Positions 2,395 through 4,108 of a stretch of DNA of 64,000 bases are shown here, in pieces. The notes beneath the pieces are model-generated. The model did no database searches and was not told the origin of the DNA. It was given only the letters and a program-made list of their open reading frames with translations. The DNA is taken from contig NW_027191459.1 in assembly GCF_011745625.1 (NCBI RefSeq), positions 248,001 to 312,000 of the forward strand, in the 5' to 3' direction. The DNA comes from Cladosporium halotolerans. Taxonomy: Eukaryota. Numbering within the stretch: position 1 is the stretch's first letter; the number at the start of each line of letters is the position of its first letter. The translations under genes were made by a program, and so were the position numbers.

Positions 2395-3204
2395 GATGGG
2401 CTACCGCCTGCCTTCTCCCGCGAAAGGCTTTCAACAGTATTGGCCTTGTTGGAAGCCAATCAATTTGAAAGGCCCTCAAATTCGAACTGTCTTTTCGGTG
2501 GTACGAGATGAACTTGTATTTGCACTCGGACTCTGCAAGTCCTTGATGATCGACCAGATCTTGAGGATGTCAAATACTGGCCGCCGCCTGCCTTTGATGA
2601 TTGTGGAGGCGGATATGATCTCAGGCTCGCGGTATCGCTGCCCGGTCCCTGTATGAAGTAAGAAAATGCGAGATTCGCAATGAGTCAACGCCGCCTGGAA
2701 AGCCAAAAACGTGTGGTGAGAGGAGCTGAAGTCAGCCCTGTTAAAGTATATGTACATACGAACAAACGCAGTGGACATGGGTGGTGAGGTCATCCTCCAG
2801 CCAGGGCCATCCGGTGGAGCGAGACGAAGGAGACATCCGGCCAGAATGTTAGGCAAGCTGCGCTTTCACAAAGTGGGTTTGATCATTTGAGAGTTTGCAA
2901 TATTAAATCATCACGTACAAATTTTTTATTGGCACTGCAGGTGGTGCAGATACTGTACACTCGATCGCACCACTGACATGGCACGCATGGCCGCGGCGTC
3001 TGCGAGATGCACCGTCGACAGCGGACGGAGTCTTTCCGCGGGGCTGCAGCGCGATGCCTTCACATGCTCAAGCTTTCGCGACCCTTCCTCATGCACCACT
3101 CAATTTGATCAACACACCAGCTTTAGCTGCTTTTTGACGCACTACATCGCGTCGCATAGTTCTCAAGGCCTCCGCGGTCAATCTCAGGCAGGCGAACAGC
3201 AAAA

Positions 3205-4108
3205 ATGGCTGACACCGAACAAGTTCCACCTAACGCAACGTTCGTACATTGCACTCCGTACGGAATTGCGCGAGGTTAGGATCAAAAGCTGACCGTGAAC
3301 ACAGTGTCTACGTATGCCCATTGCATCACACCTTCTAGCCCTTTGTTTCTCCCTAACCCTCCAACAACAGGCCCGCAACCTCGACGAGAAGGTCAAGATC
3401 CCCGCCCTGATCGAGGCGCTGCACGAACTCTTCGACGTCTTCGGCACCGTCGTCGACATCGTCGCGAAGAAGAGCCTCAAGCGCAAAGGCCAGGCGTTCA
3501 TCGTCTACGATAATGTCGAGAGTGCGCAGGATGCGATTGAGGACCTCCAGTCCTTCGACCTGTTCGGCAAGCCGATGAAGTTGGAGTTTGCCAAATCGCG
3601 CTCCGACGTCACGGTGCAGAGGGAGGATGGCGAGGCTGGGCTCGAGACCCACAAGAAGCACAGGATCGCAGAAAAGGGCAAGTTCACACTTTTCAGGCAT
3701 TCGCACGGTGTTGCATCTGACGGTATTGCAGAGCGCAAGCAAGCGCAAGAGGCCGCGGCCGCGGCAGCCACTGCACCGGCCAAACGTGCGCCAGCCGAGA
3801 ACATCGCAGAGCGCCCTGCGAAGAGCGCCAAGCCGGCGGCTGGTGCTGGTGGTGTTATACCGGACGAGTTCCTCCCGCCGAACAAGACTCTTTTCTTGCG
3901 CGACCTGCCCGAGGGCTATGGCCAAGACGCACTCGCTGTCATCTTCAAGCGCTTTCCGGGCTTTAGGGAAATCCGGACGGTGCCTGGCAGAGGCAATATT
4001 GCGTTTGCGGAATACGATGATGAGACTGGTGCCATTGCGGCGAAGGAGGCGCTTTCGGGCATCGAGCTGAGTGGACAGCCGATCTCGGTCACGTACCAGA
4101 GGCAGTAA
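3205..4108 (+). CDS. U1 snRNP protein A (U1A/Usp102-like, U1A/U2B'' family, two RRMs); exons 3205-3239, 3305-3311, 3371-3677, 3732-4108
   Basis: Spliced product MADTEQVPPNATVYARNLDEK..IVAKKSLKRKGQAFIVY..; C-terminal RRM PPNKTLFLRDLP..FPGFREIRTVPGRGNIAFAEY; exon sum 726 nt, in frame. Confidence 0.9.
3234..3270 (+). promoter_or_regulatory. U1 snRNA stem-loop II mimic (U1A-binding hairpin) spanning the intron-1 donor of the U1A gene
   Basis: CGCAA-CG-TTCGTAC [ATTGCACTCC] GTACGGA-A-TTGCG: 7-bp inner stem closed by C-G, 5-bp outer stem, 10-nt loop identical to the human U1 SLII loop. Confidence 0.75.

Follow-up and report, generated by a model that had tools for sequence, protein, structure and literature searches.

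Does a fungal gene for a U1A-family protein carry, within its own first intron, a binding site through which the protein could control the splicing of its own transcript? The question is raised by a 64,000-nt stretch of Cladosporium halotolerans DNA (RefSeq assembly GCF_011745625.1, contig NW_027191459.1, positions 248,001 to 312,000 of the forward strand; hereafter the window), in which plus-strand positions 3205-4108 code for a 241-aa protein that is identical to P0001, deposited at NCBI as a hypothetical protein of this species. Intron 1 of this gene contains a hairpin that resembles stem-loop II of U1 small nuclear RNA (snRNA). With a probability of roughly 70%, the hairpin would be a selected site for the gene's own U1A that blocks a splice signal and provides negative feedback at the splicing step; we infer binding, repression and nonsense-mediated decay of the transcript from the sequence.

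As judged from its amino acid sequence, the encoded protein belongs to the U1A/U2B''/SNF family and has two RRMs. Its first RRM matched human U1A chains with E values of 1e-19 to 1e-20 and U2B'' nearly equally well (phmmer, PDB), and Pfam placed RRM_1 in two stretches, one of them at residues 170-234. Relatives of P0001 carry the source names U1A, usp102 or U2B''. Most RNP residues, such as the GQAF block, are retained in the alignment of RRM1 to human U1A.

The intron-1 hairpin and its conservation

The inner stem of the hairpin pairs TTCGTAC (3241-3247) with GTACGGA (3258-3264) in 7 bp, one U-G among them. It carries a 10-nt loop, ATTGCACTCC (3248-3257), closed by the pair C3247-G3258, and is extended by an outer stem in which CGCAA (3234-3238) pairs with TTGCG (3266-3270). 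The heptamer AUUGCAC occupies the 5′ side (3248-3254) of the loop AUUGCACUCC, which we take to be the same as the loop of human U1 stem-loop II. Folding of 3234-3270 with RNAfold returned exactly this two-stem hairpin at -20.2 kcal/mol (z -3.17; equalled by 2 of 200 shuffles), and the hairpin was retained in both the minimum-free-energy and the centroid structures of a 176-nt pre-mRNA context. The structural part of the original prediction, made from the window alone and covering the stems, the loop, its C-G closure, the overlap with the intron-1 donor, the in-frame TAG and all coordinates, was right throughout, RNAfold giving the same fold.

Judged from one window, the hairpin is not statistically rare and is only suggestive: where 0.86 occurrences of the loop motif with its closing pair would be expected, the window has two, a count that 20 of 100 shuffles also reached. 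The significance of the hairpin comes from comparing orthologues. For this comparison 28 relatives were aligned, and JGI/ENA metagenome contigs were then scanned, which yielded 267 pattern matches, 131 of them encoding relatives. The best 80 of these 131 relative-encoding stretches were kept, and all counts over 80 loci refer to them. Most loci have an exact ATTGCAC on the sense strand 24-130 nt upstream of the RRM1 exon, usually the sole ATTGCAC there. Every such heptamer instance entered the hairpin alignment, pairing being ignored, and gave 31 distinct 38-mers, window included.

Within this alignment AUUGCAC is present in 29 of the 31 distinct hairpins, the remaining two having ACUGCAC. The closing C-G pair is found in 30 of 31, the exception being a Fusarium-type hairpin with an 11-nt loop, and the loop is 10 nt long in 30 of 31, the Fusarium oxysporum-like loci L016/L072 having 11 nt. 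Loop positions 8-9 are variable (AU, AC, UC, UU, GU, AG). The ACUGCAC variant, in which C replaces U2 and the rest of the hairpin is intact, was seen in two lineages (L001 at 223, L048 at 387).

The stems behave differently from the loop, with about seven unrelated stem sequences among the hairpins. In the 9-bp stem 86.7% of cells are paired, compared with 52.2 ± 2.3 in shuffles, and none of 500 shuffles reached the observed value; the covariation score was 0.802 vs. 0.194 for the control, and when the partner was slid by 1-3 columns only 19-35% of cells paired. Changes on both sides were counted in 8 of the 9 stem pairs vs. 7.8 ± 0.4 in shuffles, of which 430 of 500 reached the observed number, so this measure does not discriminate. 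A covariance model of the hairpin (R1), run over the window and the 80 loci (385,960 nt, both strands), produced 63 matches with E values of 0.0012 or lower. One is the window hairpin (37.7 bits, E 2.8e-8), and the others are exactly one match per locus in 62 of the 80 loci, on the sense strand throughout and within about 25-130 nt upstream of the RRM1 exon. The next-best match on both strands of the 385,960 nt had an E value of 0.57, with nothing else lower. The informative part of this search is the lack of other matches, not the matches to training sequences. The original prediction had also proposed a check for a conserved loop and covarying stems in orthologous introns, and both were strongly borne out by the R1 matches and the paired cells. 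That the resemblance arose by chance or hitch-hiked neutrally with the donor sequence would suit the motif count of the single window, but it is already contradicted by covarying stems in 62 of 80 loci together with the lack of other matches in 386 kb, and we consider it very improbable.

In published work, the contacts of U1A are with AUUGCAC and with the C-G pair that closes the loop, and the heptamer is selected in varied loop contexts (PMC2203988); the same recognition of heptamer and closing pair applies to mammalian U1 stem-loop II (PMC6325900). On the aligned sequences, the constrained features of the fungal hairpin are those that U1A RRM1 reads; the remaining positions change by compensation, and the one further constant is the seat of the hairpin on a splice signal. 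A control of splicing that does without the gene's own product, acting either as a gate on the donor that is kinetic or thermal and needs no protein, or through another factor such as a separate U2B''-type paralogue, could draw on the stems themselves, as 7-9 bp with a core of about -12 to -15 kcal/mol would alone hinder access of U1. Yet a protein-independent gate leaves unexplained why the heptamer, the closing C-G pair and the 10-nt loop stay fixed over some seven unrelated stems. A U2B''-type factor is disfavoured by the loop, which is of the U1 type, AUUGCAC, whereas the counterpart of the U2 stem-loop IV type ends in G. Control without the gene's own product thus appears improbable.

Placement on splice signals and proposed mechanism

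In the window, the intron-1 donor GTTCGT (3240-3245) sits within the 5′ arm of the hairpin. RNA data came from four metatranscriptome runs, all in the form of contigs, none of which covers 3000-3351. One contig, from run X15, has a 21-nt loose end in which the final 14 nt of exon 1 are followed by a 7-nt microexon, and this end is joined at 3371 to exon 3. Since exon 1 is thus seen with the microexon attached, the donor at 3240 is in real use.

The position of the hairpin intron is identical in 50 loci and the window: phase 2, within a Thr codon that precedes Val-Tyr. The contiguous stem begins exactly at donor position +1 in 45 of these 51, one base to either side in 4, and four bases inside in two Fusarium-type loci, whose stem carries on beyond a bulge. 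The Dothideomycete class has GTTCGT as its donor, and the Sordariomycete/Leotiomycete class has GTACGT, GTATGT or GTGCGT. The remaining 12 loci have the branch-point consensus within the 3′ arm or 0-9 nt away from it: the hairpin stands in the middle of intron 1, immediately ahead of the branch-point consensus, in L007-9 and L020-24, and in intron 2, with CTGAC in the 3′ arm or a few bases off, in L018, L039, L067/68 and L071. The general rule across the 62 loci is that a splice signal is occluded, which is not always the 5′ splice site.

These results refine two statements made from the window alone. Burial of the 5′ splice site by the hairpin holds for 50 of the 62 loci; it fails for the 12 where the branch point of intron 1 or 2 adjoins or overlaps the hairpin. 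Likewise, the description of the donor as weak fits the Dothideomycete class with its GTTCGT and does not fit the Sordariomycete/Leotiomycete class, in which donors are consensus-like (GTACGT or GTATGT).

Retention of the hairpin intron has a uniform consequence for the reading frame. In the window, read-through of intron 1 from the ATG at 3205 ends at the in-frame TAG at 3277-3279, 24 codons on. Across the 5′-splice-site class, read-through from the ATG leads to a premature stop in 51 of 51 cases, after 17-67 codons in 50 of them; in L048 it is out of frame, with 135 codons.

The mechanism that we propose would start from U1A made in excess of the available U1 snRNA, which would leave a pool of free U1A. 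RRM1 of the free protein would bind the AUUGCAC loop with its closing C-G pair and stabilize the stem, and U1 small nuclear ribonucleoprotein (snRNP) would thereby be kept from pairing with the intron-1 donor. In lineages with the hairpin on the branch point, recognition of the branch point would be blocked. Intron 1 would then be retained, translation would meet the in-frame stop after 24 codons and no RRM would be produced, while the retained-intron transcript would probably be degraded or held in the nucleus.

A U1A-family protein bound to the hairpin might also help splicing, either by aiding recognition of a poor donor or by timing intron 1 against intron 2 for inclusion of the microexon. 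The non-consensus donor GTTCGT of the window class and the special handling that a 7-nt microexon needs are in keeping with such a role. However, the hairpin is kept without the microexon or intron 2 (L003, L011, L014, all Sordariomycete-type loci) and with consensus-like donors; donor positions +1 to +8/9 are paired, which opposes pairing with U1; the branch point, not the donor, is the hairpin site in 12 loci; and RRM1 of the U1A that resides in the U1 snRNP is already taken by stem-loop II. A helping function is for these reasons unlikely.

Binding of U1A could, finally, be real and the regulated step a different one, be it nuclear retention, a transcription-coupled effect or a role of the pre-mRNA as a buffer for free protein, and here the vertebrate precedent, which works at polyadenylation, is the supporting case (PMC6884704). 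Against it, the site always lies on or beside a splice signal, even when moved between introns, and read-through gives a premature stop in every one of the 51 sequences, which leaves another step quite unlikely.

Several points weigh against negative feedback by the gene's own product at the splicing step. The X15 contig represents the spliced form at intron 1 and no retained isoform was seen, although contigs cannot show absence. The label of a mimic refers to the human and mammalian U1 site, not to the fungus's own U1 snRNA. In the alignment, the fungal proteins have Lys at the position of human U1A Arg52, a residue that contacts A1 and the closing pair and whose replacement in Arg52Gln abolishes binding (PMC2203988). 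Hairpin instances were chosen by motif and position and then served to build the model, so that its matches to them follow by construction, and many of the class A rows in the alignment are closely related. Moreover, 12 loci from 7 distinct lineages, all with the upstream region intact, lack the hairpin in an R1 search with filters off (L005/6, L012, L034/35, L037, L053-55, L062, L077/79). As the hairpin is missing in these 7 lineages, the circuit would be dispensable or replaced there. Overall, the interpretation given in the original prediction is supported, for an element that is not universal.

Distribution across lineages and structure of the gene

Lineages were labelled by the nearest named protein in blastp, and the labels are guesses, not identifications. 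The stem type of the window, GTTCGTAC / GTACGAAC, occurs in Dothideomycetes: Cladosporium, Teratosphaeria- and Recurvomyces-like, Aureobasidium (95-99%) and Elsinoe-like loci. A second stem type, GTAYGTGTC / GACACRTAC, is found in Sordariomycetes, namely Sordariales-like loci, Coniochaeta (90%), Colletotrichum (87%) and the Fusarium oxysporum complex (98-100%), and also in a single locus of Leotiomycete-like type (Hymenoscyphus, 90%). Other stems, again unrelated, belong to the Alternaria-identical L039, the Glonium-like L071, the lineages L007-9 and L020-24, L018 and L067/68. No hairpin is present in Aspergillus-like (85%) and Onygenales-like (76%) loci, in three Pleosporales-like lineages, in L005/6 and in the distant L062; in the Aspergillus-like and Onygenales-like loci the sense strand holds no heptamer at all. 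A decayed remnant, GUUGCACUCC with a poor stem, stands at the homologous place in L037 (2170-2206; best match with filters off, E 1.9).

Altogether 18 of the 80 loci had no R1 match. Besides the loci with an intact upstream region, three are cut upstream (L017, L045, L047) and three are spliced-form contigs (L010, L026, L027). L010 corresponds to the L023-type gene after splicing, and L026 and L027 correspond to L039 after splicing; in two further lineages the mature RNA is therefore free of the hairpin introns. These three are presumably transcript-derived contigs within the 'metagenome' collection. As to whether L001 and L013 are partly spliced transcripts that keep the hairpin intron alone, sister contigs of several kilobases also lack the downstream intron, and L013 has no tail. 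In a quick tree of the RRM1 exons (59 rows, after exclusion of the 6 cut or spliced-form loci, of L062 with its short match and of identical sequences) the hairpin classes track the protein lineages, with columns too few to order events.

The features of the window gene are collected in Table 1.

Table 1. Hairpin, exons and introns of the U1A-family gene; positions are those of the window
Feature	Position	Strand	Evidence
U1 stem-loop-II-like hairpin	3234..3270	+	RNAfold, covariance model R1, covariation in 31 distinct homologues
Exon 1, coding portion from ATG 3205; its last two bases open a Thr codon, phase 2	3205..3239	+	sequence, match to P0001 N-terminus, junction in RNA contig
Intron 1, 65 nt; donor GTTCGT 3240-3245, TAG 3277-3279, acceptor CAG 3302-3304	3240..3304	+	sequence; removal seen in X15 contig
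Branch-point-like GCTGAC in intron 1	3288-3293	+	consensus alone
Microexon, 7 nt, TGTCTAC; finishes Thr, then Val-Tyr	3305..3311	+	X15 contig; needed for P0001 frame
Intron 2, 59 nt, GTATGC...CAG	3312..3370	+	sequence, RNA contig
Exon 3, encodes RRM1	3371..3677	+	phmmer vs. PDB; RNA contig coverage
Intron 3, 54 nt, GC-AG type	3678..3731	+	RNA joint, P0001 frame
Exon 4, coding portion with linker and RRM2; TAA stop 4106-4108	3732..4108	+	sequence, Pfam, RNA contigs

The joint across intron 3, with 54 nt skipped, was present in all four RNA runs, the cut being ambiguous by 1 nt; the intron is read as GC..AG because this placement suits the frame of P0001. The 7-nt microexon unit recurs in many orthologue loci. 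In an extended alignment its Tyr falls opposite the aromatic residue in RNP2 of human U1A, and the deposited gene models of the relatives P0009, P0010, P0023 and P0026 look mis-spliced at the microexon.

Intron 2 of the window has a near-match to the heptamer, ATTGCAT, at 3320-3326. In two other Dothideomycete lineages an exact ATTGCAC lies about 11 nt past the intron-2 donor, outside any hairpin (L049 at 2949, L051 at 486, L060 at 2657, L061 at 2943). This early intron-2 heptamer may represent either a second, weak site for U1A or a product of chance, and it is not kept in most class A loci.

Relation to known systems and significance

U1A is a textbook RRM protein, and its self-regulation in vertebrates through a polyadenylation-inhibition element (PIE) is a classic case. 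The PIE lies in the 3′ untranslated region (UTR) of U1A, presents two internal-loop sites and acts on poly(A) polymerase (PMC6884704, PMC9977717). Both systems have copies of AUUGCAC in the U1A gene itself. In vertebrates, free U1A in excess binds the pre-mRNA of its own gene and reduces its expression, and in the fungus it would do the same. The PIE, however, keeps a fixed distance from the poly(A) site and is bound by two U1A molecules, whereas the fungal hairpin is a single terminal loop in a 5′-proximal intron and sits on a splice signal. The hairpin has neither a location in the 3′ UTR nor two heptamer boxes in internal loops, and no further site was detected by R1, either within the window gene or in the 3′ flank. 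It shares the logic of the PIE but is no PIE.

In Saccharomyces cerevisiae, the RPL30 (L32) protein binds a mimic of its normal target in its own pre-mRNA, a structure that includes the 5′ splice site, and blocks splicing. This is the nearest case by mechanism, as there too a structure in the regulator's own pre-mRNA includes a splice signal, with repression in the U1A gene being our proposal. The two differ in their parts: a kink-turn and a ribosomal protein in RPL30, as opposed to an RRM-bound loop and a component of the same snRNP by which the occluded site is read. Splicing autoregulation of ribosomal proteins is mentioned in general terms in PMC6884704 and PMC8216456. With U1 stem-loop II the hairpin shares AUUGCAC at the 5′ side of a C-G-closed 10-nt loop; it differs by standing in an mRNA intron and by a stem built from splice-signal sequence. 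Another conserved intron structure that hides or exposes a 5′ splice site is the thiamine pyrophosphate (TPP) riboswitch of Neurospora NMT1. Like the hairpin, it is a filamentous-fungal intron structure that governs access to a 5′ splice site, or in the hairpin's case would do so; unlike it, the riboswitch responds to a metabolite and not to the gene's own protein, and the RNA folds are unrelated.

The hairpin matched no Rfam 15 family in a search of the gene region at E ≤ 10, PIE models included, and the whole 64-kb window held no Rfam family at gathering score. Two sub-threshold matches from the same database, a coronavirus s2m motif at 2948-3001 on the minus strand, a short way upstream of the gene (22.3 bits vs. 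a gathering score of 50, E 0.055) and a SNORD43-like match in the gene region (E 5.1), were taken as chance. Fungal or splicing-level autoregulation of U1A was not found in the literature searched, which leaves out most subscription journals. In the available part of a survey of fungal structural RNAs (PMC8216456) the terms MUD1 and snRNP are absent, and that of a review of autoregulation by RNA-binding proteins (PMC6884704) describes for U1A the PIE alone. The earlier belief that such a circuit is undescribed in fungi agrees with these literature and Rfam searches.

Taken across the lineages, the hairpin probably belongs to an old autoregulatory circuit, common to at least Dothideomycetes, Sordariomycetes and Leotiomycetes, in which the stems were rebuilt and the site was moved between 5′ splice site and branch point and between introns 1 and 2, while the loop was kept. 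A splicing-level circuit would explain why the 5′ end of the U1A gene, with its 7-nt microexon behind the hairpin intron, is repeatedly mis-annotated. The element was seen in loci resembling tractable groups (Fusarium oxysporum-like, Alternaria-like and Aureobasidium-like). If the circuit operates as proposed, it would offer filamentous fungi a compact (38 nt) and portable protein-responsive splicing switch, and it would be a natural case of a U1 snRNP subunit that governs access of the U1 snRNP to a donor.

In the literature searched, self-control of U1A is described as a 3′-end event only. The fungal circuit, if true, would represent functional convergence with the vertebrate 3′ UTR element, but at the step of splicing. 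Self-control of U1A by mimicry of stem-loop II would then have arisen at least twice or would far predate vertebrates, and snRNA mimicry for U1A homeostasis would be both widespread and evolutionarily plastic.
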